Notes under the pieces: generated by a model
Database searches by the model: none
Told to the model about the DNA's origin: nothing
Seen by the model: only the letters and a program-made list of their open reading frames with translations
Shown: positions 1,352 to 32,870 of the stretch, piece after piece
Numbering within the stretch: the first letter of the stretch is position 1
Layout of the letters: the number at the start of each line of letters is the position of its first letter
Program-made: the position numbers and the translations under genes
From: a virus
Taxonomy: Duplodnaviria; Caudoviricetes
Strand: one strand, 5' to 3'
IMG/VR virus record: IMGVR_UViG_3300007988_000044
Span: 1-34,599 of that record
DNA length: 34,599 bases

Positions 1352-1361
1352 ATAAAATTCC

Positions 1362-2419: not shown

Positions 2420-2420
2420 A

Positions 2421-2615
2421 CTATTTGGCCTTTGGCTTATCGACTTCAGGCGTGAAGTTAACCTTCTCACCACGAGTTAACTTAGCCTTATAACAATTAA
2501 TGGCACTACGGGCCTCGGCATCAGGTAAATCAACAATACAAGGCTTACCATTAACATTGGATGGAATCTCACCTAATGTTGGTGATTTAAACGGGCTACG
2601 TACTTCAACAATCAT
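2421..2615 (-). CDS. hypothetical virion-operon protein (64 aa)
   Basis: Fills the gap; overlaps the upstream stop codon. Confidence 0.6.
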   Translation of the reverse strand: MIVEVRSPFKSPTLGEIPSNVNGKPCIVDLPDAEARSAINCYKAKLTRGEKVNFTPEVDKPKAK

Positions 2616-2902
2616 GATCTGTTCTCCAATTCAAACGGCGTATTACTGCCATCTTTAGGGTGAATTTTCCCCACTCGATGTTCAACACCGTTAATCAATA
2701 CCAGATAACCACGCTTAAACTGATTAGGCAGCAATGCCGTGGCAACCTGCCAAACATTAACATCTGAAGCCTGATCACCAAGGTAAGTCGTTATCGTGTC
2801 CTCAATGGCGCTAACATCAACGCCATCAATAGTGATAGTTTGCCCAAAAGCATCGACCTGGGCGCTATCAAGTAACGCATCAAACGCATCAAACGCCGTC
2901 AT
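2612..2902 (-). CDS. head-tail joining protein (gpFII-like)
   Basis: Size, FD...D...FG N-terminus, synteny. Confidence 0.6.
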   Translation of the reverse strand: MTAFDAFDALLDSAQVDAFGQTITIDGVDVSAIEDTITTYLGDQASDVNVWQVATALLPNQFKRGYLVLINGVEHRVGKIHPKDGSNTPFELENRS

Positions 2903-2903
2903 A

Positions 2904-3314
2904 TTAGACCTTGTTTTTTATGATCCCCTCTTCAACAAGATCATCCGCAACATCAGCGCTAACTTGCTGAGTCCCGGCTTTCAAATGAAGAGGTTTAGTA
3001 TCAACGAGAATGGTTACGGCATGGGGCAATTCGACCGTGACCAGGATTTTATCTTGTGGCTTGGTTGAACCTTCATTAAGGTTTTGTTTACCATTTGATT
3101 GCTGATTAGTGAGATCATCACCAGGCAAAATCTTATCAACCATTTCAGCTAATTGATCTAATGTTTTGCCATCAAGTTCAGAAAGTTCAATATTGTTTTC
3201 ATGCAAATATTCTAAGGCGAGATTCGTAGCATAGGCTTCTTTTACTTCTTTGTTGCCTGTTGGAATTTCACCACCAAGTAACTGAATCAGTAAATCAATT
3301 GCGGTAACTGTCAT
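2904..3314 (-). CDS. hypothetical protein at the gpFI (packaging accessory) position
   Basis: Acidic 136 aa directly after the major capsid gene. Confidence 0.55.
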   Translation of the reverse strand: MTVTAIDLLIQLLGGEIPTGNKEVKEAYATNLALEYLHENNIELSELDGKTLDQLAEMVDKILPGDDLTNQQSNGKQNLNEGSTKPQDKILVTVELPHAVTILVDTKPLHLKAGTQQVSADVADDLVEEGIIKNKV

Positions 3315-3328
3315 GTTATTTGTCTCAT

Positions 3329-3352
3329 AAAAAAGGCCGCTATCGCGGCCTT
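3329..3352 (-). terminator. intrinsic terminator after the major capsid gene
   Basis: AAGGCCGC-4nt-GCGGCCTT stem followed by a T run on the minus strand. Confidence 0.7.
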
Positions 3353-3382
3353 ATTAATGTTAAATAAAAGGGTTTGTTTGGA

Positions 3383-4408
3383 TTAGTACGCTTTTAAGTA
3401 CACAAAATCATCGGGATGATCCGGCACAGGCAATGGCGCTGATTGCGTCATTATAAACTCACCCGCTGGATCATCTTTAGTAAACTCTTTGGGGAAGCGC
3501 TCAAACGAATCATAATTCGCTTTTGGGTCATGGATCATGCCATAGCACATAGTACCTTCGGCACTGGCACCGCCCATGATGATTTCGCCATCGAGAACAA
3601 ATTTCTCTTCAACACCATCATCATTATCAAAGGTTCCGGTATAAACCCAAATTTCAATCGCGCCATAATCGCCCATTTTGACAAATAACTGGCCATTAAA
3701 GGCCGCCGTTTCAAGACGGCTGTCACTGCCTCGGCGGGTCTCCAATTTATCTTTGATACATTTAAACTCACAGAACTGGGCATAGGTATGTGAGTTCATG
3801 TAAAACGCAGTCACTGGATTGCGAGCATTAGCCATATACGCCGTTAGATCAGAATCTAAGGCATAGGTTTCTTTATTAAGTTGATCCCACTTTGCGGCAC
3901 CGACTAGCTTAATGGTGTTATTAGGATTGCGCCCAAAATCGATTTCAGATTTAGGGTAAAACTCAGACTCAATAACGACTTTGCCAAACTTAACTAACTG
4001 ACAACACATCCACTCTTCGGCAATGGTTATTTCATAGTCTTGTTCAATGGCCATATTGCCCATAATGGCATCACGGCGCTCTTCTGGCGTGAGTGGGGTA
4101 TCATACCCTTCACCAGGTAAGCGGCTTTGTAAATCACTAGGAACCAAAGCATCCAGCGGCTTTAAATACGCAGGAAAAACCGATTGCGTAGAACTGCCTT
4201 CGCGGCGGCGCGCAACACCTTGGATAATTGGGCTGACAAACGGTGCACGTTTGTTTTTACGAGTCACTTTATCTAAGTCAATTTTAGCTGACTTAAAAAA
4301 CATGCGTTTACTGAAAAATAGGCTCGCAAATACAGGCATAAATTTTTTACGTGTAGTTTGCAAACCAATCAGGGTAGCGGTTGTAAGGGCCATATACATT
4401 TTCTCCAC
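3383..4408 (-). CDS. major capsid protein (lambda gpE family); likely start at 4393
   Basis: APFVSP, PAYLKP, EEWMCCQ, IDFGR, MTQSAPLP motifs of gpE. Confidence 0.93.
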   Translation of the reverse strand: MEKMYMALTTATLIGLQTTRKKFMPVFASLFFSKRMFFKSAKIDLDKVTRKNKRAPFVSPIIQGVARRREGSSTQSVFPAYLKPLDALVPSDLQSRLPGEGYDTPLTPEERRDAIMGNMAIEQDYEITIAEEWMCCQLVKFGKVVIESEFYPKSEIDFGRNPNNTIKLVGAAKWDQLNKETYALDSDLTAYMANARNPVTAFYMNSHTYAQFCEFKCIKDKLETRRGSDSRLETAAFNGQLFVKMGDYGAIEIWVYTGTFDNDDGVEEKFVLDGEIIMGGASAEGTMCYGMIHDPKANYDSFERFPKEFTKDDPAGEFIMTQSAPLPVPDHPDDFVYLKAY

Positions 4409-4433
4409 AAAAAAACCGCCTATTGGCGGTTTT
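4409..4433 (-). terminator. terminator-like hairpin between gpD and gpE
   Basis: AAAACCGCC-TATT-GGCGGTTTT with A/T runs on both sides. Confidence 0.6.
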
Positions 4434-4472
4434 GGTGTTTATTAAAGGATGAATTAAACAGGATAAAGCGGG

Positions 4473-4838
4473 TTAAACTGGCAAGCTGATATTGATACCT
4501 TTACCAACAAAGGCTGCTTTTTGCTTATCTAATGTATCTAAACTGACATGCCAGTTAATTGCTTCAGCATTAAACTTACCGCCATCATAAATAGGCTGGT
4601 AAGCGGAGCCATCTGTCGTATCAACATCATGCACATTGATACCGATGGCATTTTGTGTACCGTCGGCAGCCGCTGGATCATGTTTGTATGCCAGTTTATC
4701 AGCGGTTTTAATTGCAATAGGTGTATGTGCCGAAATTGTTTGTCCGGCGGCAAAATGTAAGGTGCCAGTGGTATAGGTACCTAAAAAAAGTTGCGATAAT
4801 GTGTGATTAACCACACTTGATCCTGCTGGATTATACAT
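4473..4838 (-). CDS. head decoration protein gpD-like
   Basis: ADGTQNAIGI...GKFNAEAINW motif; upstream of the capsid gene. Confidence 0.85.
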   Translation of the reverse strand: MYNPAGSSVVNHTLSQLFLGTYTTGTLHFAAGQTISAHTPIAIKTADKLAYKHDPAAADGTQNAIGINVHDVDTTDGSAYQPIYDGGKFNAEAINWHVSLDTLDKQKAAFVGKGINISLPV

Positions 4839-4893
4839 AGTGTCATCCCCGATAAAACGTAAGTTAAAAATGCAAAACGTTAATTAATAGCTG

Positions 4894-5265
4894 TTACTTT
4901 TTCTTTGGCCCAAAAGCACGATCAAGTAGGCTATTTGCAGCTTGCAAATCATTTTTTTCAGGCGTGTTTTCATCATCGCCCAATGGCTTTTGACTGTGTT
5001 CTTGCATCAGTTCTTCTAACTGACCACCATCCGTAAGCTTTTCTTCACCAGCAACGGATAAAGTACCCTTAGCCTGTTCAAGCGTCATGCTTGGCATAGC
5101 AGCAAGTGCATGCGCCAGTTTTGGGCGGCTCTTAGCTTCATCACAACCCAATATTGATAAAACGCGCTCATTTTCAGCTTTTACAGCAGTGGCAACATCA
5201 GCATTAGCTTTTGCGGCAAGTTCTGCGGCTTCGGCGGCTGCGGCGGCTTTTTCTTCATCACTCAT
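4894..5265 (-). CDS. nested scaffold protein (Nu3-like) from an internal start
   Basis: AGGAG 8 nt before in-frame ATG 5265 (MSDEEKAAAA...ENERVLSILGCDEAK). Confidence 0.7.
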   Translation of the reverse strand: MSDEEKAAAAAEAAELAAKANADVATAVKAENERVLSILGCDEAKSRPKLAHALAAMPSMTLEQAKGTLSVAGEEKLTDGGQLEELMQEHSQKPLGDDENTPEKNDLQAANSLLDRAFGPKKK

Positions 5266-6186
5266 CTTCAACGCTCCTAACGGTTTTTGTGTGCCGGACT
5301 TGGCAGCATGATTAATTAACTCTAAATGAAATTCATCAGCACTCATAAGCGCATCAGCAAAACCAATATCGACAATTGCCTGACCTCTAAACGTGGCGCT
5401 TTGAGTGCTTAAAACACTTTGCACATCGATACCGCGCCATGTGGCAACTTTATTAGAAAAGAATTGGTGTAATTCAGCCATTTCATCTTGAATTTCGGCT
5501 GAAAGTTCAGTGCTAAGTGCATTGTATGGATTGCCATCAGCTTTTTTATCTCCGGCATAAAAAAGCGTGATTTTAAAACCTGCATCTTCAATCGCTTTTG
5601 ACATATCGGTATGAGCACAGATAACCCCAACGCTGCCAGCAATTGCTGTTTCAGTCACAATCACGCGATCACAACTGGCGGCTATCGCATAGCAGGCGCT
5701 ACAGGCTAACTCGTTAACAATGGCCCAAATCGGCTTTTTACCGCGCACATGGGCATAAATATAATCGCATAGTGCAAAGCATCCGCTTACCTCACCGCCT
5801 GAGCTGTCAGTGTCCAACCCAATAGCTTTAACATTAGGGTCGGCAAGCGCTAAATCGATATTTGCCCGAATGCCATCATAACCAGTCATGCCGGAATATG
5901 GCTTCAGCGTACCTAGCTTATGAACTAATGATCCGCTTAATGGGATATACGCCACACCGCCTTTAATTTGATAAGGCATATTAGTACCGCGTGGATTGCT
6001 ATAGCTTTCTGCCATTTCTAACAACTGCTGACCATCCAGTGACACATCACCATCTTGTAAGCTAGCGACAGGCATGCCACGCCCTTGCAGTGAGCCGATC
6101 ACAGTGGATAAATAACTCGCTTGCACCATTAAAGGCGTATTAAGTAAACGGCTGGCCAAGTGCAAACTAATTCGGGTCTTACTCAT
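4894..6186 (-). CDS. S49 prohead protease gpC with C-terminal scaffold
   Basis: DSSGGEVSG, ACSACYAIA, GSVGV, KADGNPY motifs. Confidence 0.92.
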   Translation of the reverse strand: MSKTRISLHLASRLLNTPLMVQASYLSTVIGSLQGRGMPVASLQDGDVSLDGQQLLEMAESYSNPRGTNMPYQIKGGVAYIPLSGSLVHKLGTLKPYSGMTGYDGIRANIDLALADPNVKAIGLDTDSSGGEVSGCFALCDYIYAHVRGKKPIWAIVNELACSACYAIAASCDRVIVTETAIAGSVGVICAHTDMSKAIEDAGFKITLFYAGDKKADGNPYNALSTELSAEIQDEMAELHQFFSNKVATWRGIDVQSVLSTQSATFRGQAIVDIGFADALMSADEFHLELINHAAKSGTQKPLGALKMSDEEKAAAAAEAAELAAKANADVATAVKAENERVLSILGCDEAKSRPKLAHALAAMPSMTLEQAKGTLSVAGEEKLTDGGQLEELMQEHSQKPLGDDENTPEKNDLQAANSLLDRAFGPKKK

Positions 6187-7923: not shown

Positions 7924-9938
7924 TATGTGTTGTTCCTTTGGCCGAGTTTGCCATACGGATTAGAGGATTTAGTGAGTGCCGGCTTTTCTTTATCCCGCTC
8001 TAATGCTTTGGCATTAAGATTTAAACCAAAGTGTTGAATGCTGAGTTCGAGGGCTGTAAAACTACCCACCGCGCAATCCCATGGCTCATTGCGGCGGCCT
8101 CGATCAATCCACACTAACCTTACTTTACGGTTATGGCGCTTAAGCTCTTTTTCTTCAGCGGTAAGCTGTTTGAAGTAAACCTCATCAGTAAAATCAGCAA
8201 TGGGGTAATGGCAATAACCACTGGGATAAAACCCATCATCACCCTTGATAAGATTGTGCCGATATTCCAATGTGTTTTTTACGCTTTCGGTATCAACCAT
8301 CGTTAGGTAAACACCATGCACATTCGCCTTACGCGGGAACGTGGTCGGCTTGTCGTATTCATTCCATCCCTTAGTGGGGATCAAAGTGAAAATACCTATG
8401 CGCTTACAAAATGAGTAAACCTCTTTGGTATAGTGACCACCTGAGTCAAAGCAGCCACGGGTTAACTTCAGTTTCCGACCATCTTCAGTGGTAAATTCAG
8501 CCTTAAGAATTATTTCTAATTCATTCCATATTTCAGGCTCTTTTGGATTACCAAATACCCTAAAATAACTAATCAGATAACTTTCGTTATTTTCGTCATA
8601 GGCCCTTAGTTCACCCTCAACCCGATCATTCTGCATATCGAGCCCGGCAAATATCACCAGGGCTTTGCGTGGTAATAGCAACTTACCATTCGCATCAACA
8701 GGGAAATGCTCCCGCCTTTCATACAATGATCCATGTTCTAGCGGTCGAGTGGCGTTTTTCCACGTTTCGCCAAGTGTGGTATTAACAAAGCCTTTAAACT
8801 TATCAATCAGACCTTTATTCTTTTTTTGATAATAAGCATCAAAAAAATCATGTAGCATTTCAGACCAGGTATACCAAGGGCTATATGCTGTCCAAATATG
8901 AAAGGCCACATGCCTAGGTGGATCAATTAGGTCGCCATCAACTGTCCTAAATGCGCTAGTGCTATCAATCCAAACACCACAGCTAGGATCTATCCATCGA
9001 CCATGCTTAATCATCCAATCAAGTTGGTCATTCGTGATTTTCTTATGGCAACTCTTATGCTCGCACTGGTAATAAATCGTTTTAGCGGCATCTTCCTTTG
9101 GGCTGAGTGAGTCGGGGAACTCATCTGGGAATGAAAACTTAAACCCATAATCTTTATCTTTACCGCCCCACTTTAATACCTGTTCGCCTTTACAGTGTGG
9201 GCAAGGTACGTGGTACCTAAAAAAGAAATCAGCATTATCGACTTCCTCCTGGATGATAGATCCCTCTTCATCCTTTGGCGTGGTACCTCTAACAGACTTA
9301 GGAAAAAGTGAGTTAGAGATACGTTTGTCACCCAATGTTAGCGGTGAACCTTCGCCCTCAATATCACGGTCAAATGCTTCTAGCTCATCGTAAAATGCAC
9401 AATCCTTTGTCATCCGACGATAGTTACCGCCAGACTTACCACCGCGAATGTCCATTATCGAACCGATAAAGGTTTTCTTTAAAATGCGGTTAAATTTATT
9501 ACTGGTAGCACCCCAAGGAAACACCTTGGCCATTACCTCAACGTCACGCAGCATAGGCGTAAGTTCGGTAAGTGAAAAATCCTCTGCATCGGGTTCGGTA
9601 GGCTGGAAAAGTACCGTATTGCGCTTTTTGTGCTCATGGAAATAGCCAAGCGCAGCCAAAATCATTTTGGTATAGCCAACCCTGGCAGATTTAATAAAAT
9701 CAACAATGCGAATGTCATCATTGCTAATGCAATCCATGATCGCTTTTTGAAATGGGATAGTTTCCCAGTTTCCTTCGGTATAACTGGATTCAGCAGACAA
9801 ATAAAAGTGTTTATCGGCCCACTCACTTAGGGTTAAGGATTCAGGCTTGCTAAGTGTCTGTTTCCATGCCTCCGCTATCGCCATACTTAAAGCAACTAGC
9901 GAGGTACGATTCCAGGTCAATTGGTTCCGTTGCTGCAT
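7923..9938 (-). CDS. terL: terminase large subunit (gpA family)
   Basis: KSARVGYTK Walker A, YDELEAF, TTP, VPCPHC, DSGG, RNEPWDC. Confidence 0.96.
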   Translation of the reverse strand: MQQRNQLTWNRTSLVALSMAIAEAWKQTLSKPESLTLSEWADKHFYLSAESSYTEGNWETIPFQKAIMDCISNDDIRIVDFIKSARVGYTKMILAALGYFHEHKKRNTVLFQPTEPDAEDFSLTELTPMLRDVEVMAKVFPWGATSNKFNRILKKTFIGSIMDIRGGKSGGNYRRMTKDCAFYDELEAFDRDIEGEGSPLTLGDKRISNSLFPKSVRGTTPKDEEGSIIQEEVDNADFFFRYHVPCPHCKGEQVLKWGGKDKDYGFKFSFPDEFPDSLSPKEDAAKTIYYQCEHKSCHKKITNDQLDWMIKHGRWIDPSCGVWIDSTSAFRTVDGDLIDPPRHVAFHIWTAYSPWYTWSEMLHDFFDAYYQKKNKGLIDKFKGFVNTTLGETWKNATRPLEHGSLYERREHFPVDANGKLLLPRKALVIFAGLDMQNDRVEGELRAYDENNESYLISYFRVFGNPKEPEIWNELEIILKAEFTTEDGRKLKLTRGCFDSGGHYTKEVYSFCKRIGIFTLIPTKGWNEYDKPTTFPRKANVHGVYLTMVDTESVKNTLEYRHNLIKGDDGFYPSGYCHYPIADFTDEVYFKQLTAEEKELKRHNRKVRLVWIDRGRRNEPWDCAVGSFTALELSIQHFGLNLNAKALERDKEKPALTKSSNPYGKLGQRNNT

Positions 9939-10392
9939 TTCTCGCCTTAGTAATTTGCTGTTCGATAATAGCTAAACGTGACTTAGGCAATTCAGGCATG
10001 GCGCGGGATATTTTTGCAGGAATACCATCAAGTATCCCGGCGACCTTCGCGCCTTTATCGGCGGTCATCTGCATGATCATTTCAATTGGAGCGACTTGGC
10101 CAAGCACTTTTAATACTTCAATTTCCATCTTGTCAGCTTTCATCTTTACCAATCTGGCATCATGCCAATCAGTATTAATGGGCTGTCCATCAGCAGTGGG
10201 GCTTGGTACTGACTCATCACCGCCTTTGATCTGTTGCTTAATATGCTGAATGTAATTTTGAACGCAGGTTTTTAGGCAAAACCCATTAGTGCCGCGCTTA
10301 TCTGATAAAATGCCCTGTTTCATCAGGTTTCTAACTTGCCGCTCACTTAAACCGATCATTTCACCGATTTCAGTTTGAGTCGCCATTACCAC
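9850..10392 (-). CDS. terS: terminase small subunit (Nu1-like)
   Basis: N-terminal wHTH ATQTEIGEMIGLSERQVRNL plus coiled coil; overlaps terL. Confidence 0.88.
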   Translation of the reverse strand: MVMATQTEIGEMIGLSERQVRNLMKQGILSDKRGTNGFCLKTCVQNYIQHIKQQIKGGDESVPSPTADGQPINTDWHDARLVKMKADKMEIEVLKVLGQVAPIEMIMQMTADKGAKVAGILDGIPAKISRAMPELPKSRLAIIEQQITKARNAATEPIDLESYLASCFKYGDSGGMETDT

Positions 10393-12004: not shown

Positions 12005-12033
12005 ATGTTAAGCTTAGGCGTGTCATATTACAA
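12005..12033 (-). promoter_or_regulatory. late promoter (pR'-like)
   Basis: TTGTAA-17-TAACAT about 70 bp upstream of the terminator; a Q gene is present. Confidence 0.6.
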
Positions 12034-12060
12034 TAGTAAATAAGTAAAATATTACAATAT

Positions 12061-12076
12061 TAGGATTTTAATCCTA
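12061..12076. promoter_or_regulatory. 16-bp operator TAGGATTTTAATCCTA
   Basis: Near-perfect palindrome of the TAGDA-N6-THCTA family. Confidence 0.55.
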
Positions 12077-14374: not shown

Positions 14375-14812
14375 TTAAGTGTGTTTTTTAAGTGCTGCTA
14401 AAAGCATTTGATAAGCCTTTTCGGCGCCATTGCCACCATGAATATTGGCATCATCAAACACTTTTTTATGAAAATTAACGGCGGGCAGACGAACGGCTGG
14501 CGGCAAAGCAGCAATGATCAACTGAGCCTGAAGGTTACGTTTATCACATAACAATAATGGCACCTCGCCACCATGCTCGATGGCTAGGTTTCTTAATTTA
14601 TCATTACTGTATATTTGGCCAAATGATAAATAATCATTGTTATAATCTAATGCAACTGCTTGCTGCATCGACTCTGGTAAAACAAAAATCTGAGCCATGA
14701 TCCATCCCAAATCTGAACGGGAAGGGATGCCAAAGTAAAACAATGGCATCGGCGGCTCTTTTAGTTTCACTATCTCAGAGATCAATTTGAACTCGCTAAA
14801 ACTTTGGCCCAA
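14375..14812 (-). CDS. hypothetical protein
   Basis: 145 aa ORF in operon. Confidence 0.6.
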   Translation of the reverse strand: MGQSFSEFKLISEIVKLKEPPMPLFYFGIPSRSDLGWIMAQIFVLPESMQQAVALDYNNDYLSFGQIYSNDKLRNLAIEHGGEVPLLLCDKRNLQAQLIIAALPPAVRLPAVNFHKKVFDDANIHGGNGAEKAYQMLLAALKKHT

Positions 14813-15222
14813 CAGTTGATCGCGGCCTGAGTTGATCTAGTATTCATCCGGCTAACATCATGCCTAGATACTCCGGTTAAATTGGCTATCTCAGCATGAT
14901 CATGCTCTCCGGCTGCCAACAGACTAACAATTTTCATAACCACTTTTTCACTTAACAGCTTATTGCGCTTTTTAGATTGGGTCATGTTAGTCGTAGCACT
15001 ATTAAATGAACTTACCCCAATTGCTCGCCCGGCTGCAGTGACTTTCTTAGGTGATGAAACGTTATCAATAATAGGCTTTGGCGGCGGTATGTACGGCTCA
15101 CCACGGCGGTATCCCCCATGCGATAAATTATGAGAAATAACTTGTGTATAGTCGGCGCGGCTGACTGTTCCTGTGTTGAAGTGTGGAAATCTTAAAGAGG
15201 TTTCACTCATATCGTAACTCAT
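14782..15222 (-). CDS. protein with C-terminal HTH
   Basis: DHAEIANLTGVSRHDVSRM; SD AAGGA. Confidence 0.65.
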   Translation of the reverse strand: MSYDMSETSLRFPHFNTGTVSRADYTQVISHNLSHGGYRRGEPYIPPPKPIIDNVSSPKKVTAAGRAIGVSSFNSATTNMTQSKKRNKLLSEKVVMKIVSLLAAGEHDHAEIANLTGVSRHDVSRMNTRSTQAAINCWAKVLASSN

Positions 15223-15240
15223 GCCATATCCTTTCTAGTT

Positions 15241-15283
15241 TAGTATTATATTACTATTCTAATCCTTTAATTCTGTTCGTCAA
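15241..15283 (-). promoter_or_regulatory. sigma70 promoter with operator over +1
   Basis: TTGACG-16-TAGAAT (15283-15256); operator TAGTATTATATTACTA at 15241-15256. Confidence 0.6.
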
Positions 15284-15327
15284 TATTGCTGCTCATTTTT
15301 TGACAACCGGAAGTGAAAAGCGGAAGT

Positions 15328-15367
15328 GATATTTCGATATTTAAATATCATAATATTTAAATATTCA
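15328..15367 (+). repeat. 8-bp tandem array RATATTNN x5
   Basis: GATATTTC GATATTTA AATATCAT AATATTTA AATATTCA. Confidence 0.65.
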
Positions 15368-15397
15368 CGAAAAACAATGGCTTAAAACAGCCACTTA

Positions 15398-15496
15398 TGA
15401 AAAGCGGAAACGGAAACCAACATTTTCATTTTCAAAAAAATTGCGGGATTCCGAGCCCCCGCGACCCCTCAGTCAAGGGGCACCCCATAAGTACCT
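15398..15496 (-). other. putative cos site (cosQ-cosN-cosB, lambda-like)
   Basis: Minus strand: AGGTACT-22nt-GGGTCGCGGGGG (15467-15456) flanked by CTGAG/CTCGG, then TGAAAAT tracts and GTTTCCGTTTCCG resembling lambda R3. Confidence 0.65.
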
Positions 15497-15499
15497 TTT

Positions 15500-15626
15500 T
15501 AAGTCATTGATTTAAAAGGCTTTTCACCTACACTCACTGGTTGACCAGTTGTTTTTCAATCTGGTTGACCAGTTAGGAATCGGTGTAAGTTATTGATTTA
15601 TATAGATTAATGACAATGTTTGTCAT
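15500..15626. promoter_or_regulatory. two IHF sites bracketing two CTGGTTGACCAG palindromes, plus ATGACAA-N3-TTGTCAT
   Basis: TAAGTCATTGATT 15500-15512 and TAAGTTATTGATT 15586-15598 match YAANNNNTTGATW; palindromes at 15536-15549, 15561-15572 and 15610-15626. Confidence 0.6.
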
Positions 15627-15628
15627 GT

Positions 15629-15719
15629 CCGAGGCCATGCCGCCCCGGTAGCCTGGTCATATAGAAGCCGAGGCCATGCCGCCCCGGTAGCCTGGTCATA
15701 TAGAAGCCGAGGCCATGCC
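15629..15719 (+). repeat. 39-bp perfect tandem repeat, 2.3 copies
   Basis: CCGAGGCCATGCCGCCCCGGTAGCCTGGTCATATAGAAG at 15629 and 15668, partial at 15707. Confidence 0.95.
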
Positions 15720-15728
15720 ACTATAAAA

Positions 15729-15836
15729 AATATTTTAATATTTTAATATTTTGATATTGACACGCCCCGCCTTAATAATTAATATGAGGCTCATAGGGTA
15801 GCCACTAGGGCAGCCCATCACCAGGGAACTGAGACC
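15729..15836 (+). promoter_or_regulatory. conserved upstream module copy 1 (8-bp array, promoter, hairpin, leader)
   Basis: AATATTTT x3, TTGACA-17-TAATAT, GGGTAGCCACTAGGGCAGCCC-ATCACCAGGGAACTGAGACC-ATG. Confidence 0.9.
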
Positions 15837-16328
15837 ATGAAGATTCAAGATGCATTAAACCTACTGGGCCTAACTGGCACTGTCACAAAGCAAGAAATCA
15901 AAAAGGCGTACCGCGCCGCTTCTCTTAAATACCATCCTGACCGCAACCCATCTGGTAAAGAAATGATGCAAGCCATTAATGCTGCATTTGAAGCGCTAAA
16001 AGACTTAGAAGAGGTTACAGGCTCAGAAGATAGTCAAGAGGCTTACGACTTTGCAGAACAGTTAAGCGCAGCGCTAAACATGGTGAGTTCTCTAGCTGGC
16101 CTGGATATTGAGGTTTGCGGCAACTGGGTATCGCTGAGCGGTGACACCAAAACGCATAAAGAGGCGATTAAAGAGGCTGGCTTTAAGTGGGTCAAGAAAA
16201 AAGTCATGTGGTACTTCCGTCCTGAAGACTATAAAAGCTCAAATCGTGGCGGCTGGTCGATTGATCAGATTCGTGAGCAACACGGTTCAACTAAGGTCAG
16301 AACACAATACCGCACCGCATTAAACTAA
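15837..16328 (+). CDS. J-domain (DnaJ-like) protein
   Basis: EIKKAYR...KYHPDRNP...INAAFEAL; C-terminal GFKW..KK.MWY domain. Confidence 0.9.
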   Translation: MKIQDALNLLGLTGTVTKQEIKKAYRAASLKYHPDRNPSGKEMMQAINAAFEALKDLEEVTGSEDSQEAYDFAEQLSAALNMVSSLAGLDIEVCGNWVSLSGDTKTHKEAIKEAGFKWVKKKVMWYFRPEDYKSSNRGGWSIDQIREQHGSTKVRTQYRTALN

Positions 16329-16339
16329 GGGATAAGATC

Positions 16340-16777
16340 ATGGCTAAAGCATTAGTAACCAAAGGCGCGATAGCGCTATCCGGTAAACCAAGTGAAAAGG
16401 CGTTTATTGATGAATGGGCTAGGCAGGTTATCGGCAAGTGGTGTGCTATTGCGGCGGTTGACTCTGACGAAAACGAATACACCCTAATCTTAGGCTTTCG
16501 TTGCTGCAGCGTTGCGGAAATGCGCGAGGATGTTTCAGACGCCAAGAGTGTAGCAAAATGTGTGCTTGAAGAAAGGGCAAATCAAGGCCGTGATTACTTT
16601 GTACTGACATACGTTGATAACGGTGAAACGTTCGCTGAGTTTTCAGACTTTGACAAAGATAAAGTGAAGTATGAAAAAGAATGCGCTTGCATGAAAAAAA
16701 TGAAAATCCACAAAGTTAGTTATTCATCCGACTGCGTAAAACAACTGCTTATTGAGTTGAACAAAGAGCCATCTTAA
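16340..16777 (+). CDS. hypothetical protein
   Basis: 145 aa, SD AAGGGA. Confidence 0.7.
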   Translation: MAKALVTKGAIALSGKPSEKAFIDEWARQVIGKWCAIAAVDSDENEYTLILGFRCCSVAEMREDVSDAKSVAKCVLEERANQGRDYFVLTYVDNGETFAEFSDFDKDKVKYEKECACMKKMKIHKVSYSSDCVKQLLIELNKEPS

Positions 16778-16807
16778 GAGGGCTTTTATCGGCTAAACAA
16801 ACTTATA

Positions 16808-16847
16808 GGGCGGCCAATAGGGCCGCCCATCACCAGGGGACTGAGAC
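16808..16847 (+). repeat. conserved leader copy 2
   Basis: GGGCGGCC-AATAG-GGCCGCCC-ATCACCAGGGGACTGAGAC-ATG. Confidence 0.9.
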
Positions 16848-16958
16848 ATGATAAACGTATATACAATAAGAGAAGGGCGCGAAATTTGGATCGCTCGCAT
16901 CAGACCAGCAGCGGCGATAACCTGGGAAAAGCGCCATCCTTACCACATTTTCAAATAA
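16848..16958 (+). CDS. 36-aa small protein (not in ORF track)
   Basis: MINVYTIREGREIWIARIRPAAAITWEKRHPYHIFK; ATG supplied by leader copy 2; followed by a terminator-like hairpin. Confidence 0.7.
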   Translation: MINVYTIREGREIWIARIRPAAAITWEKRHPYHIFK

Positions 16959-16962
16959 ACTA

Positions 16963-16988
16963 AGGCCGCGTAAGCGGTCTTTAATTTT
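16963..16988 (+). terminator. intrinsic terminator
   Basis: AGGCCGC-GTAA-GCGGTCT followed by TTAATTTT. Confidence 0.55.
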
Positions 16989-16990
16989 AA

Positions 16991-17098
16991 AATATTTTAA
17001 TTTTTTAAAATTAAAATATTGACTCGTTTTAATATTATCGACTAAAATAAAACTCATAGGGCGCCACTTGGGCAGCCCATCACCAGGGAACTGAGACC
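16991..17098 (+). promoter_or_regulatory. conserved upstream module copy 3
   Basis: Degenerate 8-bp array, TTGACT-18-TAAAAT, GGGCGCCACTTGGGCAGCCC-ATCACCAGGGAACTGAGACC-ATG. Confidence 0.88.
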
Positions 17099-17590
17099 AT
17101 GACCGAATCACAAGCCATTATCACCCGCGCTTTCAATGCTAACGCCGCCGAGTTTCTTACAACAATCTGTAAGCGCGAGCATATCGATTTAAACTCTATC
17201 AAACACACTAATGATCGCTTTGTTATCGGGTTCGTAAATACGGGCCGCTATGTCACGATCAGAACGGTTACAGATATTAAGAACAATGAAACTTATCCCA
17301 CTTATACAAAATTAGTTTTTTCGGTCTCAACGCCTGGCCAAAATTATCATGAACATTTAAGCGCCATCGAAGCCGGGGCCGTTCGCTACACTGGCGAGGA
17401 TCTAAGGGCAAGGCCATTTAATGTTGACGGTGTTAATTATTGGGGCTTATGGTCTGAAGAACATCAAGGCTTCATCGGCTTTGATAATAAGCTCAGCGCT
17501 TACGCGCCAGCGGGCGGCTTTCACTCAGTAAAAAGTTTAACTAGCGGTGGAATCGCCAACAATGCAGCCATATTCATTTGCAAGATTTAA
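17099..17590 (+). CDS. hypothetical protein
   Basis: 163 aa starting at the leader ATG. Confidence 0.8.
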   Translation: MTESQAIITRAFNANAAEFLTTICKREHIDLNSIKHTNDRFVIGFVNTGRYVTIRTVTDIKNNETYPTYTKLVFSVSTPGQNYHEHLSAIEAGAVRYTGEDLRARPFNVDGVNYWGLWSEEHQGFIGFDNKLSAYAPAGGFHSVKSLTSGGIANNAAIFICKI

Positions 17591-17593
17591 TTA

Positions 17594-17634
17594 AGGCAGC
17601 CACAAGGGCAGCCCATCACCAGGGAACTGAGATC
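17594..17634 (+). repeat. conserved leader copy 4 (no own promoter)
   Basis: AGGCAGCCACAAGGGCAGCCC-ATCACCAGGGAACTGAGATC-ATG, 3 nt after the upstream stop. Confidence 0.9.
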
Positions 17635-17931
17635 ATGAAAGCAATCAATGCAAAAGAGTTTAAAAACGCTTGCCGAGCTTATAGCCGTTCAAACTCAAAA
17701 TTTCGTCCAACTCATACTGAAAGCCTAGTAAGGGTTTACGGTTATGAATTAGCTTATTTAGTTGAAAAGTTTGAACACTATAAAAACCAACTAGGTACAA
17801 CAAACATCCATGTTAGAACTAATTATCGAGCTTATGCCGTGGCTCAATTTAGCCATCAAGAGTGGTTATCTCAAGCTAAGCGATTAACGCTATCTTGGCG
17901 CTATTTTGACACCACAAAAAAACACAAATAA
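17635..17931 (+). CDS. hypothetical basic protein (98 aa)
   Basis: Start at the leader ATG (MKAINAKEFK). Confidence 0.8.
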   Translation: MKAINAKEFKNACRAYSRSNSKFRPTHTESLVRVYGYELAYLVEKFEHYKNQLGTTNIHVRTNYRAYAVAQFSHQEWLSQAKRLTLSWRYFDTTKKHK

Positions 17932-17940
17932 CTCTAACTA

Positions 17941-17970
17941 AGGCGGCCAGATTGGCCGCCTATTTTTTTT
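17941..17970 (+). terminator. intrinsic terminator
   Basis: AGGCGGCCA-GAT-TGGCCGCCT-ATTTTTTTT. Confidence 0.85.
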
Positions 17971-18068
17971 GATATTTTAATATTTTGATATTGTGATATT
18001 TTAAAATCTGTGTAAAATTAAGTCATAGGGTAGCCACTAGGGCCGCCCATCACCAGGGAACTGAGACC
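17971..18068 (+). promoter_or_regulatory. conserved upstream module copy 5
   Basis: GATATTTT AATATTTT GATATTGT GATATTTT, TTGTGA-16-TAAAAT, GGGTAGCCACTAGGGCCGCCC-ATCACCAGGGAACTGAGACC-ATG. Confidence 0.9.
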
Positions 18069-18230
18069 ATGAAAAAATATCTCTCTGAGTTAGCCATACT
18101 GCTAAGCATCATCATCTTTCAAGCCGTAAAGGATGGCTTTAACCCACTGCTAGGGCTCGTTTTAGTGGTTATCCCTTGCGCCATCGTTTTAATAGTAAAA
18201 TTGCTTGATATTAAAAAATTAAAATATTAA
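18069..18230 (+). CDS. 53-aa two-TM small protein (not in ORF track)
   Basis: MKKYLSELAILLSIIIFQAVKDGFNPLLGLVLVVIPCAIVLIVKLLDIKKLKY. Confidence 0.7.
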   Translation: MKKYLSELAILLSIIIFQAVKDGFNPLLGLVLVVIPCAIVLIVKLLDIKKLKY

Positions 18231-18280
18231 TATGTGTTGAGGGTGGCTACTGGGCCACCCATTACCAGGAAACTGAGATC
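18205..18280 (+). promoter_or_regulatory. conserved upstream module copy 6
   Basis: TTGATA-17-TAATAT; GGGTGGCTACTGGGCCACCC-ATTACCAGGAAACTGAGATC-ATG. Confidence 0.85.
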
Positions 18281-19174
18281 ATGATTACATCACAAGATAA
18301 ATACTCAATCGTACTAAACTTAATATACTTTTCGTTTATCTTACTGCTGATTAGTTGCGGTGCTAAATCACATTTCTTTATTCCTTTCTACCTCATCACC
18401 TGCGGCATTCCATCGGCACTAATGGCCATCATGCGCCATAAGTCAGACCTAAGCCCAACCCAACCACCAAAAGCCATCACAGCGCCAATTGCGGCGCCAA
18501 TGAATAACGTTGTACAGCTACCAAAACAACTCAATATAAAAAAGCCGGTACTGTGGGACGGGAAAAATTTACGCGGCACCTGGACAGCAACACGTAAGGC
18601 CGATGGCGTAAGAGCAACAGTGATAAACGACCAAGTGTTAACGACTGGCGGCAATCCTTGGCCAATCAGTTTACAGCAGATGAAAGGCGCAAAAGATGCA
18701 GAGATCTACTTCGGCGACTGGTACACCAGCATTAAGGCCATGCGCGGCCAAGTCGAAGTAAATCCCGAAAATGTATACCCACTCGATACCCCAGATCCCC
18801 GCCTAATGATTGGCAGCCTAACCAACCCAACAGCCGAACAAATTACCGATCTACTCAATCAAGTGGTTTTGGCAGGGTGGGAAGGGCTGGTATTACGCCA
18901 GGGCGATACATGGATCAAAGTCAAAAAATCAGAAACCCATGATCTCGAAATTATCGCAATCAACTACAACAAAAATAAAACGGTTAAATCCCTTGTCACC
19001 TGCATGGGCTCCGTTGCCAGTGGCTTAACCAACGAGCAAAAAGCCGAGATCAAGCGCAACCCTAAAGCCTATATAGGCAAAATTATTGAGGTTTCAGCCC
19101 TAAGCACTACCGCCAACGGCAAACTAAGAGAACCGCGCTTAGAGCGCTTCCGCGATGACAAGGGGGCTAAGTAA
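18281..19174 (+). CDS. minimal ATP-dependent DNA ligase with hydrophobic N-terminal extension
   Basis: Motif I KADGVR, III DAEIY, IV EGLVLR, V KVKK, OB-fold ending LREPRLERFRDDK. Confidence 0.88.
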   Translation: MITSQDKYSIVLNLIYFSFILLLISCGAKSHFFIPFYLITCGIPSALMAIMRHKSDLSPTQPPKAITAPIAAPMNNVVQLPKQLNIKKPVLWDGKNLRGTWTATRKADGVRATVINDQVLTTGGNPWPISLQQMKGAKDAEIYFGDWYTSIKAMRGQVEVNPENVYPLDTPDPRLMIGSLTNPTAEQITDLLNQVVLAGWEGLVLRQGDTWIKVKKSETHDLEIIAINYNKNKTVKSLVTCMGSVASGLTNEQKAEIKRNPKAYIGKIIEVSALSTTANGKLREPRLERFRDDKGAK

Positions 19175-19776
19175 TGGCCTCATTCACTGCGGAACACATG
19201 GACACGCTAAAAGCAATAGTGAGGCACTTACCCGGCTGGCGGTTAGAAACTCGTTTAAATGAGGTCTATGACCACACAGCCGAAATCATAGGCCCGAACA
19301 AGGCCATGCTAAACATCACCCAAGAAAAGGATAAATGGAAGGTGTACGGCTCATGGCCATCAATCCGGGGCTATCACTCGTTTAATGTCCATACGCTAGA
19401 AAGGGATCATCCCTATGGTGCAATTAGGCTCGACCCGCGCCGCAACCCTAAAAGCATTGCGGCCGATATAAAGCGCCGCATCATGCCGCAATACCTGGAC
19501 GGCCTAGCCAAAGTGCAAGCGTACATTAAGCAGCGAGCCCAAAAGCAAGAAAGCTTTAATTTGGTATGCCACACAGTAAAAACCTATTTACCTGTGAAAC
19601 AAAGCAACTACCAACGCCAGCAAGGCATAACTCAATATTATTTTACTGACTGCGGGATAAATGGAGATCTGCAACTGTACGAGAGCGGCGGCGCTGGCCT
19701 AACACTGCCGGACCTCACCATTGAGCAAATTTTTTCAATCGTAAACCTACTGAAAAAGGAACAAGCAACATGCTAA
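19174..19776 (+). CDS. hypothetical protein
   Basis: 200 aa, TAATG-coupled to the ligase. Confidence 0.8.
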   Translation: MASFTAEHMDTLKAIVRHLPGWRLETRLNEVYDHTAEIIGPNKAMLNITQEKDKWKVYGSWPSIRGYHSFNVHTLERDHPYGAIRLDPRRNPKSIAADIKRRIMPQYLDGLAKVQAYIKQRAQKQESFNLVCHTVKTYLPVKQSNYQRQQGITQYYFTDCGINGDLQLYESGGAGLTLPDLTIEQIFSIVNLLKKEQATC

Positions 19777-20207
19777 AACTAGCAATCACCCCGGCGGCCA
19801 TTGAGGCTGGGATCAACTTAAATGCAATGCTGCACATAGATGATCCTGATTTTACGCACCCCACTGTAGCGGACGTTCACGCCCTAAAAGATGTGTCCGG
19901 CTGGACCCGTGGCAAAATTGCCGCTCGCTTAGGGGCTAAAGATAAAGCCGTTGATAAATGGTTAGCCGCTAGTGCTGCGAGTCACCAGCCAATCCCCTAT
20001 ACCGCCTGGGTGACTTGGTTACTCGATAGCGGCCTGTGCTACCAAGAAAATAGCCACTGCAATGATCATGAGTTAGAAAAAATCATCACCCTGGGCAATC
20101 AGTTTTTAGACGATATTTTTCCGCAACTCGGCAAAATCGCTTTACAGGATTATGCCGCCCTCAACGAGTTAGCCATGCTGCTAACCAAACATAAAGCTAA
20201 GGAATAG
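19770..20207 (+). CDS. KorC-like HTH transcriptional regulator
   Basis: P..ADVHALKDVSGWT..KIAARLG....AVDKW......IPYTAW..WL...GL resembles the KorC pattern. Confidence 0.65.
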   Translation: MLKLAITPAAIEAGINLNAMLHIDDPDFTHPTVADVHALKDVSGWTRGKIAARLGAKDKAVDKWLAASAASHQPIPYTAWVTWLLDSGLCYQENSHCNDHELEKIITLGNQFLDDIFPQLGKIALQDYAALNELAMLLTKHKAKE

Positions 20208-20969: not shown

Positions 20970-22435
20970 ATGGCCAAACGCAAAATAGCTGAAGTTCATT
21001 TTCAAGTTGAAGGTGAATTTATCACAGAACACATGCGGTCATTAGTGCGTGAGGGCAATTGGCGCAAAGCACTTGATGATTTAAAGCACTCTTTAATAGG
21101 TATCAATAGCGATCAATGCTTTGATATTTTATCTGGCAAGTATCAACTAAAAGGGATAAATACGGTTGATTTTGTACCAGATGATAAACACTTAGATAAA
21201 GAATGGCGCGAGGCACAATATTACACTTATTTCAGAAATGTTTTTTACCATGATGGGCAATTTTATAATCCTTACGGATGCGTAAGGTACTTAAACAAAC
21301 ATGACTTAGAATTAGCCATGTTAAAGCTAGAAATTGAAGAGCTACCTATTTCAACTGGTCTCAGTGGCGCCACGGAATCAGTCACAGATTTAAACTATGC
21401 CAGGGCAGAAACCTATAGAAAATCATCTAATGATTTTGTTTTTTACTCAAATGCTTATCACAACTTTGTTATATCGAGAAAAATAGAAAACCCAGATTAC
21501 CCCATTTGGTTAACTAAAAATCAAGCCGCTGAGTTATCCATGCAACAGTTATCATCAAATCATTCGTTAGATGATGGCGAGTTAGATGGGATTGACGTAC
21601 TGCGGGAACTGGCAGCCACTAAGCGCATAAATGACAAACTTGAGTCGGCGGGTATTGCAGCGCCAGACGCATTAGATGATACATAGTAAACCTGAAAAAA
21701 TCCAAAGATTTTAGCGAAAATATCGACACGATAAAACAAGAGATAAGCAACCGCGCGGATAAGGTCGGCGGCTGGTTAACGCTTGAAAATAGTAAATCGG
21801 GTACGAAATACACTATCCCTAAAAATGCGTTTTATCGCTGGTGCCTATCAACCAGTTCAGGCTATCGCGCGATTGAATGGCAGCCTGTTTCACCTCGCGG
21901 GGTAAAAATGGGCGGTGATGATCCCAATCACACTGATTGGTGGCTGTTTACCAGGTTAAATATAGGTGATGCACATAACACTGATAATTCAGAGGTCAAA
22001 TTTTTCTTTGATATGCGCCATAAATACACCAAGTTATTGACTGGGGCTGACTTGGCTCTTTTAACCAATCAAAAAGGCCATAAAGGCTTTGAAAGCGCCT
22101 TTGTTCGCCATGTGAACACATCATCAGAGATTAATTTAATCAATAACAATGATGTGGTGATCATCCCTCAAGCATCACCAGAATTTGAGGCTGTGGCTCA
22201 CAGATGCGCTCAAAAAAATTGCATCTTAATAACACAAACAGGCGGCAAACTTTGCCATTTAGCAACCATTGGCCGCGAATTTGGATTAGCACTTTATTTA
22301 CTACCAAATGCAGCAAGTAAATACCCAATGGGTAGCAATGTTTGCATAGACCTAGTTAAAGGCACGATGAAAACCTTAGATTTACCAATTAAAGATTTAA
22401 TGCAGTTAAAGCTTACAGGTCTGTTTTATAAATAA
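20970..22435 (+). pseudogene. frameshifted ~488-aa gene with C-terminal PEP-utilising enzyme phosphohistidine domain
   Basis: First frame stops at 21686; the frame of ORF 21908..22435 is open from 21680; C-terminal ILITQTGGKLCHLATIGREFG. Confidence 0.7.
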
Positions 22436-28923: not shown

Positions 28924-28963
28924 AATATTAAACAATAAAAATATTTTAATATTGTGATATTAA
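28924..28963 (+). repeat. 8-bp RATATTNN array upstream of repA
   Basis: 28940-28961 matches 17979-18000 at 21 of 22 positions. Confidence 0.7.
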
Positions 28964-28973
28964 GGGATTTACA

Positions 28974-31900: not shown

Positions 31901-32870
31901 CTTGGTCCTAGGTGTCAGTTCTCCATCCGATGAACGCCTATCAAGCCTGAACAGCAAAAAAATGATTTATGGCTTAACGGCAAGTGAACAAGCAGAAATA
32001 GTACGCCATGAAATTGAAATGAAAATGCAGGTACCTGTTACCGATGAAAGCATTCTGCTGCATAAAAATGGTTTTCTATCACAGCTAAAACGGGCTGAAC
32101 TGTTATTCATTGAACAAGATAAATTAGCTGTTTTTGACAATGAGCAAAAAATTAGCGGCAGAGCTGCCAGCCGCTTAGACCACGCCAGCAAACGCGCTAA
32201 TGCACTTAAGTCGATGTTTGATTTAATGAGCTTAGATGTTGAAACTGGAACAGGCCAAGCGAGCAGCGATCAGATTAAAGCAGTTTTTGATTATTTCACT
32301 TCAGATGATATGCGCGATATACACAACTCAGTGTTACGCATAGGCTCGCCTGTACGCGCAAATTCAATTAATCATGTAGATCCTACTAAGTGGGTTCAAG
32401 GCGCATTTGAACGCTGTGGATTGAAGCTAGAACGTTCTGAGCGTAAGAGAATTGATGGCCGTAGCATGTGGCACTTTAGAATTAACCCGGCCAGCTTTGC
32501 ATTACTGAAAGAAACCATGAAAAGACGAAAAATAGCAGAAGTCTTTGACTGGATAATTTCCCCGGTAAATACCGCACAAACTGGCACAACCAAGGCAAAA
32601 AAGGATCAAGCACAGCCCTGTAATACTCTTTTAACCCTGCGAAATGTTATGCACAAACAAGAAAGCGTTATAAAACGTACACTTAGAGGCGTTTCTGACT
32701 TCCTCAATATACCTGCTGAATACATTAAAACGCAGATTAACAGGCAAGATATTCGCGATTTCAATGCTGGTCGGACAACATTAGATGAGTTAGCCACCAT
32801 GATCCGTGGTTTATGGGATTTTGACGGCCTAACGTATCGAAAAAAATCGCTAGAACAGGTTATTTTTTAA
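28974..32870 (+). CDS. repA: N15-type replication protein RepA (TOPRIM primase + helicase/origin-binding)
   Basis: ICEGFAT, DND, GTDTND; APMGSGKT, AHRVSL, LDEAAQ, YSPAITSGVSI, QMLRRDR; 1298 aa. Confidence 0.92.
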   Translation: MDNRLSIKQFFDKEYSSSAEEILNTHLSDLSFIANELDIDIYDAINVISVPTSIGTEDKYSDKEGARFVKNKDMRGRAAIWVRLKSTKGGIQYPFITLKAKGQVRTWSGYEPFKEAYTRQKAIAGNSQAQQQIDAAQLAKKKAAAEREVERQKKLAAAKIEAETKKAKSLQLYNEYMAAYARASTSDGTEPYLVTKSLTGLVKRHSNIKTLFEYYDRTLDEWRPILTDEIPHNAKKITVVPLARLGSLPAGLQRLSAEGKYQTQAVNEGDYSEAFALIGPPLNNGKPIDICEGFATTLSTQAVTGNSTLFGVSADNVKKLVPIILAAYPESKVRLISDNDHAKAKKGSGNKGMLIGMEVLQLHGHKPNLSVFIPKVKDLPKPGTDTNDIHVFHPLGLTELGRQLRAKEQNYKVSSFDDRFQLALARFTCLPHAQQIKEHNLKPVILSGLALTPSKYAVDDIINSIIGAARKAGHNINIKLVKAMVFKNLKGAVWSAQKSRAFSRKKLLGPNIIYRHFNTSKITPEIFDYINNIQNGQIIIRAPMGSGKTQGLIKPLMDQPGRAIYLAHRVSLITGATSALNKRVDKFGNTTWLDESLSVKHYRNDLTAESAPFIQKLACCINSIVNPIPDAVCQNLDQLFLDEAAQMLNSITIDGAMFAPQLVFKKLVNLMVNTRRVILCDADANDNLINLCELAAKQREDQTIHIIELKTDCQNIELNHTDHATLVSNIEQAAINNQRIVIATDNCAEADAMHQMLIEATNGGNGMIITGQNSGDTKQQQFLENLNNYVDKNGNTVEHKSQGKPWLEHEGYQWLIYSPAITSGVSIEVDYFDSHFGRFSGISISPSEAIQMLRRDRTAKKFTVGLKPSQNNAETDPNRIISAFYKAESEKNSIQYEINDDFQTIVKTADPDFDRMRALALANIASAKANFANNILWAMYSDGYNVRAAEANDLDKEHGKSLIESSRELARESLINLVLGVSSPSDERLSSLNSKKMIYGLTASEQAEIVRHEIEMKMQVPVTDESILLHKNGFLSQLKRAELLFIEQDKLAVFDNEQKISGRAASRLDHASKRANALKSMFDLMSLDVETGTGQASSDQIKAVFDYFTSDDMRDIHNSVLRIGSPVRANSINHVDPTKWVQGAFERCGLKLERSERKRIDGRSMWHFRINPASFALLKETMKRRKIAEVFDWIISPVNTAQTGTTKAKKDQAQPCNTLLTLRNVMHKQESVIKRTLRGVSDFLNIPAEYIKTQINRQDIRDFNAGRTTLDELATMIRGLWDFDGLTYRKKSLEQVIF

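Follow-up and report, generated by a model that had tools for sequence, protein, structure and literature searches.

A repeated two-hairpin leader beside the predicted cos site of an N15-like telomere phage: a candidate entry regulon of the Aca/KorC type

What could read a leader that a phage has placed, with little change, in front of one unrelated gene after another? This question is raised by the IMG/VR record IMGVR_UViG_3300007988_000044, whose 34,599 nucleotides (hereafter the window, a record rated as 76% complete) carry six copies of a 43-nt leader in an array of small genes. Its gene set identifies the window as an N15-like telomere phage or phage-plasmid: PHROGs and Pfam scans place in it lambda-like head genes, Q, cI/cro, RepA and a protelomerase, and its RepA, a primase-helicase, shows 28% identity to those of N15, PY54 and phiKO2. 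We compared it with two relatives, the record IMGVR_UViG_3300042206_000080 (L007) and a linear prophage (L249) recorded as linear plasmid pSH190041-1 from Shewanella sp. NFH-SH190041. Together, the three phages carry 17 leaders (6 in the window, 7 in L007 and 4 in pSH190041-1), the window and L007 both being incomplete records. The reading that we favor, by analogy with known systems and with a probability of about 0.5, is that the array would be an entry regulon of the Aca/KorC type: its genes would be expressed in a burst on infection and then shut off by a helix-turn-helix (HTH) protein binding the hairpins of the mRNA leaders, while an ATATT tandem would act as a separate DNA operator. What is new, as read from the sequences, is that the conserved last gene of the unit encodes a KorC/Aca3-related HTH protein, and that the leader consists of an interrupted hairpin followed by a small hairpin over the ribosome site.

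The leader is sharply delimited. Its 18-nt core matches the window six times, always on the plus strand, against none in 100 shuffles, and no seventh copy was found elsewhere in the record. As the first-pass annotation of this DNA had claimed, every copy ends at the ATG of an open reading frame (ORF) unrelated to the others (at 15837, 16848, 17099, 17635, 18069 and 18281; no mutual BLASTP hit at E<=0.01). The same annotation described a stem that varies while keeping its pairing, and this stands in so far as pairing is predicted in all copies, but the pairing is perfect in copies 2 and 6 only. In copies 1, 4 and 5 the stem is broken by a central mismatch, in copy 3 by a bulge, which makes of this first stem-loop (SL1) an interrupted hairpin. 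In the window, SL1 is 20-22 nt long and ends 19-20 nt before the ATG; its fold is predicted in 17/17 copies (z -1.4 to -4.1), and no U tract follows it. A second hairpin (SL2, CAG-N4-CTG), previously overlooked, covers the Shine-Dalgarno (SD) site, and its outer pair has a probability of at least 0.76 in 16 of the 17 copies. In the four Shewanella copies, a 2-nt insertion lengthens it by one pair, and between phages the lengths of the loop, the bulge and SL2 vary with pairing predicted throughout. Contigs of run X2 that span 14500-16960 list no base difference from the window, a read check that covers the region of copies 1-2.

The loop of SL2 brings in a first alternative, namely that a host RNA-binding protein of the CsrA/RsmA type, or processing by an RNase, reads the leader, the HTH gene being unrelated to it. 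CsrA prefers GGA loops, in particular within an ANGGA hexaloop, and a GGA is found in or at the SL2 loop in 16/17 copies, with A/U-rich stretches ahead of some internal copies. The GGA, however, doubles as the SD sequence and the ANGGA hexaloop does not form, and an Aca1-like SL1 and a linked HTH gene would be left unexplained, so that we give this alternative a very slim chance.

Promoter-like hexamers lie 8-11 nt upstream of the hairpin in copies 1, 3, 5 and 6, with scores of 9.5-10.7 (the 95th percentile of the background is 9.5), and upstream of copies 2 and 4 the score is 7.2 (background median 8.0), which amounts to no promoter; the promoters proposed earlier and the promoter-less state of copy 4 are thus borne out, copy 2 being in the same case. 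As promoter matches are not enriched by count (17 found vs 18.4 expected), the evidence lies in their position. An element made of ATATT at 8-bp intervals lies over or ahead of the -35 box in all ten promoter-bearing copies of the three phages, and none of the seven internal copies has it; promoter and box are both present in 10/17 copies and both missing from 7/17. All three phages also have such boxes in cosB and upstream of the holin gene and of repA; pSH190041-1 has them, too, upstream of parA and of its first array gene, a gene that lacks a hairpin leader. A partition protein might conceivably bind the box, but the par genes are absent from both incomplete IMG/VR records, and the parA-linked box is seen in pSH190041-1 only. 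The three phages hold 6, 6 and 9 boxes vs 0.03-0.13 in 40 local shuffles. A reading of the box as the CI operator was rejected, since no box lies between cI and cro. Besides, three runs yield contigs in which a further ATATT-TTGAC box, matching window positions 15729-15762, stands between other flanks; it has no match in IMG/VR. In X2 the depth is phage-like, and these contigs are possibly the left arm that the phage record lacks.

The 7/17 copies without a promoter fit an action on RNA, by which, in our proposal, promoter-less copies would persist. Alternatively, the GC-rich inverted repeat would be a DNA operator located just after +1 and bound by the HTH protein as KorC binds DNA, the promoter-less copies being roadblocks or relics. 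Its arms do start with TAGGG(C/T), similar in sequence to the KorC/Aca1 half-sites, and KorC and the Aca proteins are DNA-binding repressors (PMC9410906, PMC7314908). Yet the spacing and the bulges vary between copies and phages, the seven internal copies stand away from any promoter, the conserved quantity is the distance to the ATG, and KorC regulons have such hairpins on top of their DNA operator. We therefore regard a DNA operator at this place as distinctly improbable.

Binding of the leader RNA by an HTH protein, the reading that we prefer, has a candidate actor. The unit extends past the limits first given to it, up to an HTH gene (19770-20207) that is the last core gene in 3/3 phages; this extension, SL2, the ATATT tandems and any regulator had all escaped the first-pass annotation. 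An HTH profile built from 9 sequences finds Aca3 as its best match in the PDB (E 4e-4), followed by HipB (0.025) and AcrIF24 (0.08). Against R751 KorC, hhalign gives a probability of 93%, and the pairwise alignment gives 30% over 56 aa (E 4e-7). At the level of sequence, the HTH gene is thus related to KorC and Aca3.

Aca1 and Aca2 bind hairpins in 5' untranslated regions (UTRs), Aca2 thereby preventing ribosome binding, and the motif bound by Aca1 is a hairpin of ~20 nt that directly follows the transcription start site, ends ~20 nt before the start codon and consists of two 3-bp stems split by at most 2 unpaired bases; Aca motifs were found ahead of adjacent operons as well as in intergenic positions within a single operon, and purified Aca10 and Aca12 failed to bind their predicted motifs (PMC13551039). 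The UTR of JBD30 has a fold that resembles SL1, and its core 12-mer, picked after the resemblance was noticed, is matched at 10-11 of 12 bases in 6/17 leaders and in none of 276 upstream regions of other ORFs, at 37-40 nt from the ATG in the leaders and at 36 in JBD30. A hairpin descriptor finds 13/17 leaders vs 8/276 other upstream regions. The two-hairpin topology also heads klcA and kleA of R751 (L342, 8475 and 6357, minus strand) and four genes of the Paraburkholderia plasmid PPGU16_p3 (L344; 10733, 10262, 9586 and 8308, minus strand), whose array ends in a KorC-like gene. In R751, PPGU16_p3 and JBD30, a TAGG..CCTA inverted repeat lies between -35 and -10. The KorC-type regulons of R751 and PPGU16_p3 combine a DNA operator with repeated 5' UTRs of two hairpins, arranged in the topology of the Aca1 RNA motif, and by analogy KorC may bind RNA. 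In RP4, klcA, an anti-restriction gene under repression by KorA/KorC, shows ~120-fold induction when the plasmid enters a cell (PMC7314908).

Besides the late choice of the JBD30 12-mer, several results weigh against our reading. In the HTH search, HipB comes next after Aca3, the likeness to JBD30 Aca1 is weak (hhalign 24%), and no curated Aca or KorC model is matched. Upstream of closer plasmid homologues of the HTH (L253, L343, L345), no descriptor hairpin was found, in a check whose ORF caller missed the R751 leaders as well, and the plus-strand hit of PPGU16_p3 has no repeated leader. The four Shewanella copies have no in-register match to the JBD30 12-mer, and a covariance model of the 17 leaders detects neither the JBD30 nor the KorC leaders. 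The TAGG..CCTA repeat of the KorC/Aca1 type is absent from the 10/10 phage promoters examined. Covariation is weak, with 2 pairs changed on both sides and 20-22 of 500 shuffles equally high, in a set of 17 related copies in which the Shewanella lower stem is aligned one column off; the SL2 pairs are invariant across the 17 copies. Searches of the cargo against PHROGs, Pfam, NCBIfam and the PDB, general libraries of which none is anti-defence-specific, matched no known anti-defence protein or acr. Finally, the last-in-first-out ejection of lambda, on which entry of the array end first would depend, was not upheld in vitro (PMC10287942).

In the regulon that we propose, host sigma-70 polymerase would very probably fire P1, P3, P5 and P6 in the naive cell. 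SL1 and SL2 would stand at the start of each cistron or ahead of it, the SD being part of SL2. The accumulating HTH protein would then bind SL1, as Aca1 and Aca2 bind their hairpins, and block ribosome loading, a step to which we give even odds. The ATATT boxes would form a separate DNA operator, bound by the HTH protein or another factor, tying the array promoters to repA, lysis and cos. The cargo would aid establishment, partly by countering defence, which we hold to be slightly less than an even bet. A wider version is somewhat doubtful: KorC/Aca1/Aca3-type HTHs would be one family of dual regulators reading interrupted 5' UTR hairpins, and in this phage clade the RNA site would have multiplied into a translational operator for one cistron after another, DNA control having passed to the separate ATATT box; the leader would tag unknown counter-defence proteins, including the J-domain family of >2,000 plasmids, and IncP KorC would bind RNA too.

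The comparison of the three arrays tells how they evolve. Leaders are closer within phages (distance 0.21, 42 pairs) than between them (0.39, 94 pairs), a difference reached in 0 of 20,000 label permutations, and the part adjoining the ATG has phage-specific letters even ahead of orthologous genes; this likeness is what one would expect of gene conversion, and also of leaders co-evolving with a binder. Five genes are colinear in 3/3 phages (J-domain, 36-aa peptide, membrane(-ligase), 200-aa protein and HTH). Among the 17 leader-headed ORFs, 11 have a homologue in another phage and 6 have none in the other two, which agrees with the variable cargo predicted at first. Of the identical cargo in fixed order that had been named as evidence to the contrary, the fixed order is found for the five core genes. 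A shuffling of genes between leaders, in the sense of reordering, is not supported: shared genes are colinear, leaderless genes vary too (several variable genes carry no leader), and 4 runs, whose contigs show presence only, have no joint of the kind that a deletion from leader 1 to leader 2 would leave. This speaks for turnover in slots rather than reshuffling, and from the sequences compared, single units have been gained, lost or replaced in slots, with no reordering seen. Run X19 covers the J gene and not the 145-aa gene, the uncovered part showing nothing.

These facts also bear on an explanation that needs no dedicated RNA binder, in which the leaders are PeSL-type cassettes: a strong portable 5' UTR, made of a stabilising 5' hairpin or attenuator and a ribosome site, would be spread by recombination, with control at the ATATT boxes only. 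The anatomy agrees with the PeSL definition (PMC2839356), since an AT-rich tract, a sigma-70 promoter, a stem-loop, an SD and an ATG follow one another in 4/6 window copies (10/17 overall), and the PeSL/CUP-like character assigned at first is therefore sound; the homogenisation of the leaders per phage and the six phage-specific ORFs go in the same direction. However, interrupted stems are retained though perfect ones would give more stability, SL1 lacks a U tract and SL2 covers the SD, and the fixed core order, the leaderless variable genes and the missing joint between copies 1 and 2 fit poorly with spread by recombination. We thus consider this explanation unlikely. With HTH control of the leaders, recombination or gene conversion between them could, with equal chances for and against, keep them alike and let single units drop in or out.

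Beyond these relatives, the array was hardly found. The exact leader has 0 hits across IMG/VR, and with a loose pattern run on 10/64 IMG/VR parts, the known relative was the sole source of multi-copy loci among the best 80 of 121 loci. GenBank phages gave no BLASTN match to the array, and Rfam gave 8 matches, all far below gathering scores. Among the best 80 of 173 loci of a terminase search, only the known relative is close, besides two fragments at 100% identity.

From the motifs, the array sits on the cosQ side, just outside the conserved predicted cos (Table 1), at the same place in all three phages. Packaging is predicted to run toward the head genes, which places the start of the array ~300 bp in from the last-packaged end, with its genes reading inward; this location of a co-regulated array in an N15-like phage, proposed at first, is upheld by the cos motif order. 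By the contested rule for lambda that the last-packaged end is ejected first, the array end may be the first to enter. The predicted cos also holds an ATATT tandem (15329-15367) and more R-like repeats. The tandem falls between the R-like repeats of cosB, and its binder may act in packaging as well; lambda carries an IHF site at the corresponding place in cosB. Unlike in lambda and N15, the cos (15290-15500) lies ~5 kb away from terS (9850-10392), with lysis and other genes between. GC-rich tandem repeats separate cosQ from the first promoter in 3/3 phages, with units of 39, 73 and 40 bp: that of L007 (9564-9883, 73-bp x4.4) includes leader-like pieces, that of pSH190041-1 lies at 32307-32400 (40-bp x2.3), and run X19 has a shorter form of the window's repeat, whose copy number varies.

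Table 1. Features of the array, the predicted cos and related boxes in the window
Feature	Position	Strand	Remark
ATATT box upstream of holin gene	12024..12072	.	same place in both relatives
Predicted lambda-type cos	15290..15500	-	motif order kept in 3/3 phages; aligns with lambda cos
R3-like GTTGGTTTCCGTTTCCGC	near 15420	-	identical in 3/3 phages
cosN-like GAGGGGTCGCGG	near 15470-15460	-	part of predicted cos
cosQ-like AAAAGGTACT	at 15499	-	part of predicted cos
GC-rich 39-bp tandem repeat, 2.3 copies	15629..15719	+	between cos and P1
ATATT 8-bp tandem box + P1 (TTGACA-17-TAATAT)	15727..15785	+	
Leader 1	15796..15839	+	SL1 15796-15816 interrupted; SL2 CAG-GGAA-CTG 15822-15831 over SD; then ATG
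J-domain protein, HPD motif, conserved C-terminal domain	15837..16328	+	core gene; Pfam DnaJ E 3.5e-14
145-aa ORF without leader	16340..16777	+	absent from both relatives
Leader 2	16808..16850	+	no promoter; perfect SL1
36-aa peptide	16848..16958	+	core gene, leader-headed in 3/3 phages; 56% and 44% identity
Terminator-like hairpin	16962..16981	+	
ATATT-type box + P3 (TTGACT-18-TAAAAT)	16989..17048	+	
Leader 3	17059..17101	+	SL1 with bulge
163-aa ORF	17099..17590	+	homologue in L007 only (40%)
Leader 4	17595..17637	+	no promoter; core = 11/12 bases of JBD30 Aca1 RNA motif
98-aa ORF	17635..17931	+	absent from both relatives
Terminator-like hairpin	17941..17961	+	
ATATT box + P5 (TTGTGA-16-TAAAAT, weak match)	17969..18018	+	
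Leader 5	18028..18071	+	SL1 with central mismatch
53-aa hydrophobic ORF	18069..18230	+	L007 slot: 43-aa hydrophobic ORF without detectable similarity
ATATT box + P6 (TTGATA-17-TAATAT)	18197..18233	+	within end of 53-aa ORF
Leader 6	18241..18283	+	perfect SL1
Hydrophobic N-terminus fused to ATP-dependent DNA ligase domain	18281..19174	+	phrog_114 E 2e-28
200-aa core protein, wide unnamed family	19174..19776	+	313 representatives; predicted local distance difference test (pLDDT) 95
KorC/Aca3-related HTH (residues 1-90)	19770..20207	+	last conserved gene of unit; candidate regulator
ATATT box upstream of repA	28924..28970	+	same place in both relatives

The J-domain protein that begins the array shows 83% and 66% identity to its homologues in the two relatives, and its C-terminal domain has no clear fold match (best Z 5.9). 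Of 987 candidates, 451 are homologues of this protein, and matches occur in 2,127 plasmid records, 1,878 of them predicted to be conjugative; profile scans of genomes and metagenomes returned ordinary dnaJ for the most part. The region upstream of the J gene is repeated at least 2 more times in 6/66 loci (of at least 6 kb) vs 0/69 chaperone-type dnaJ loci, five of these six looking like one related group; L051, L052, L055, L056 and L176 are related elements in which the J-domain gene stands among 5-6 further copies of the upstream motif. In Vibrio campbellii pVCGX4 (L250, 6163-13313), 10 copies of a 98-nt unit, made of a promoter and a GCTAGGGA..CCCTAGC hairpin, head small genes, one of which belongs to the J-domain family. 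In the unrelated podovirus MW202738 (L252, 6766-8507), the same J-domain gene starts a run of small genes divergent from terS. Phage RB43 has a J protein of another kind, Rki, whose expression is early and whose target is DnaK (PMC3486835). The ligase domain retains the KADG, EGLV and KVK motifs and might seal nicks or breaks after entry; L007 has lost it and retains the N-terminal 92 aa only. The 200-aa protein has no clear fold match, one unnamed viral model reaching a TM score of 0.71, and its N-terminal half weakly resembles the type III chaperone/YbjN fold (best Z 7.4, root-mean-square deviation 4.0, 102 aligned). The terminators said to close some units have their counterpart in two terminator-like hairpins. 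An integron-like or CRISPR reading was rejected, as no integrase or cas gene was found among the 49 ORFs scanned.

Outside the array, phrog_11532 matches two separate window ORFs (20970-21686 and 21908-22435), the second with a PEP-utiliser-like mobile domain; this gene, split or frameshifted, is missing from the two relatives. In pSH190041-1, the left end of the record (1-5900) shows the par genes in mirror image, probably because the assembly read through the hairpin, and at 37801-38851, downstream of the HTH gene, a 99-bp direct repeat encloses a small unit of two genes.

Among known systems, the acr-aca1 and acr-aca2 operons share with the array the HTH gene in last position, an interrupted hairpin of ~20 nt that follows the predicted start site and leaves ~20 nt to the ATG, copies ahead of adjacent operons and in intergenic positions, and a short core in common with the JBD30 UTR (PMC13551039). 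They differ in that no acr is recognised here, the HTH is nearer to KorC/Aca3 than to Aca1 and in no curated model, the promoters are without the Aca1-type DNA repeat, and there are 4-7 copies instead of up to three, beside the cos of a temperate telomere phage. The KorC regulon of IncP-1 (klcA and kleA of R751 and RP4) has a related HTH, repeated promoter-leader units, the two-hairpin topology and the entry-induced logic proposed here, but this is a phage and not a conjugative plasmid, with no TAGG-N-CCTA operator and no klcA/kle homologue recognised. The array would work like an acr-aca or a KorC regulon, but with no acr recognised in it and no KorC operator in its promoters, we class it under neither. 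The PeSL cassettes of T4-type phages, besides their common anatomy, sit before ORFans and are gained and lost as units (PMC2839356, PMC4122927), whereas here the stem-loop is always in the 5' UTR without a U tract, the 43-nt leader is conserved in sequence, some copies lack a promoter, and one 2.5-kb array has a linked regulator. In the CUP/ArdK regulon of IncN pKM101, one repeated element links entry genes to repA (PMC6289460), as the ATATT box would do here, but no ardA, ardB or ardK homologue is recognised, and the elements are apparently unrelated, being set apart without a comparison to the CUP sequence. N15, PY54 and phiKO2 share the RepA, the protelomerase, the lambda-like head genes and the cos, and differ in the distance from cos to terS; the right 10 kb of N15 has no leader match. 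In mycobacteriophages, the SAS is another conserved motif just upstream of start codons.

Promoter-stem-loop units and the CUP/ArdK regulon are thus already published, as are Aca repression (PMC9410906, PMC8434428) and multi-site Aca regulons. For such an array in a telomere phage, no report was found in the open literature with queries that left out the Shewanella plasmid and KorC RNA binding; the excerpt of PMC11054321 does not mention DnaJ or promoters.

If our reading holds, an entry-type regulon would be present in a telomere phage, and some 12 unannotated genes, together with a J-domain family common on conjugative plasmids, would become candidates for entry or counter-defence functions. 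The system is small and testable, with an HTH of ~90 residues, a 43-nt leader and a cultured Shewanella lysogen that carries a relative. The question that it opens is whether RNA binding by HTH repressors reaches beyond Aca1 and Aca2 to KorC-type proteins.

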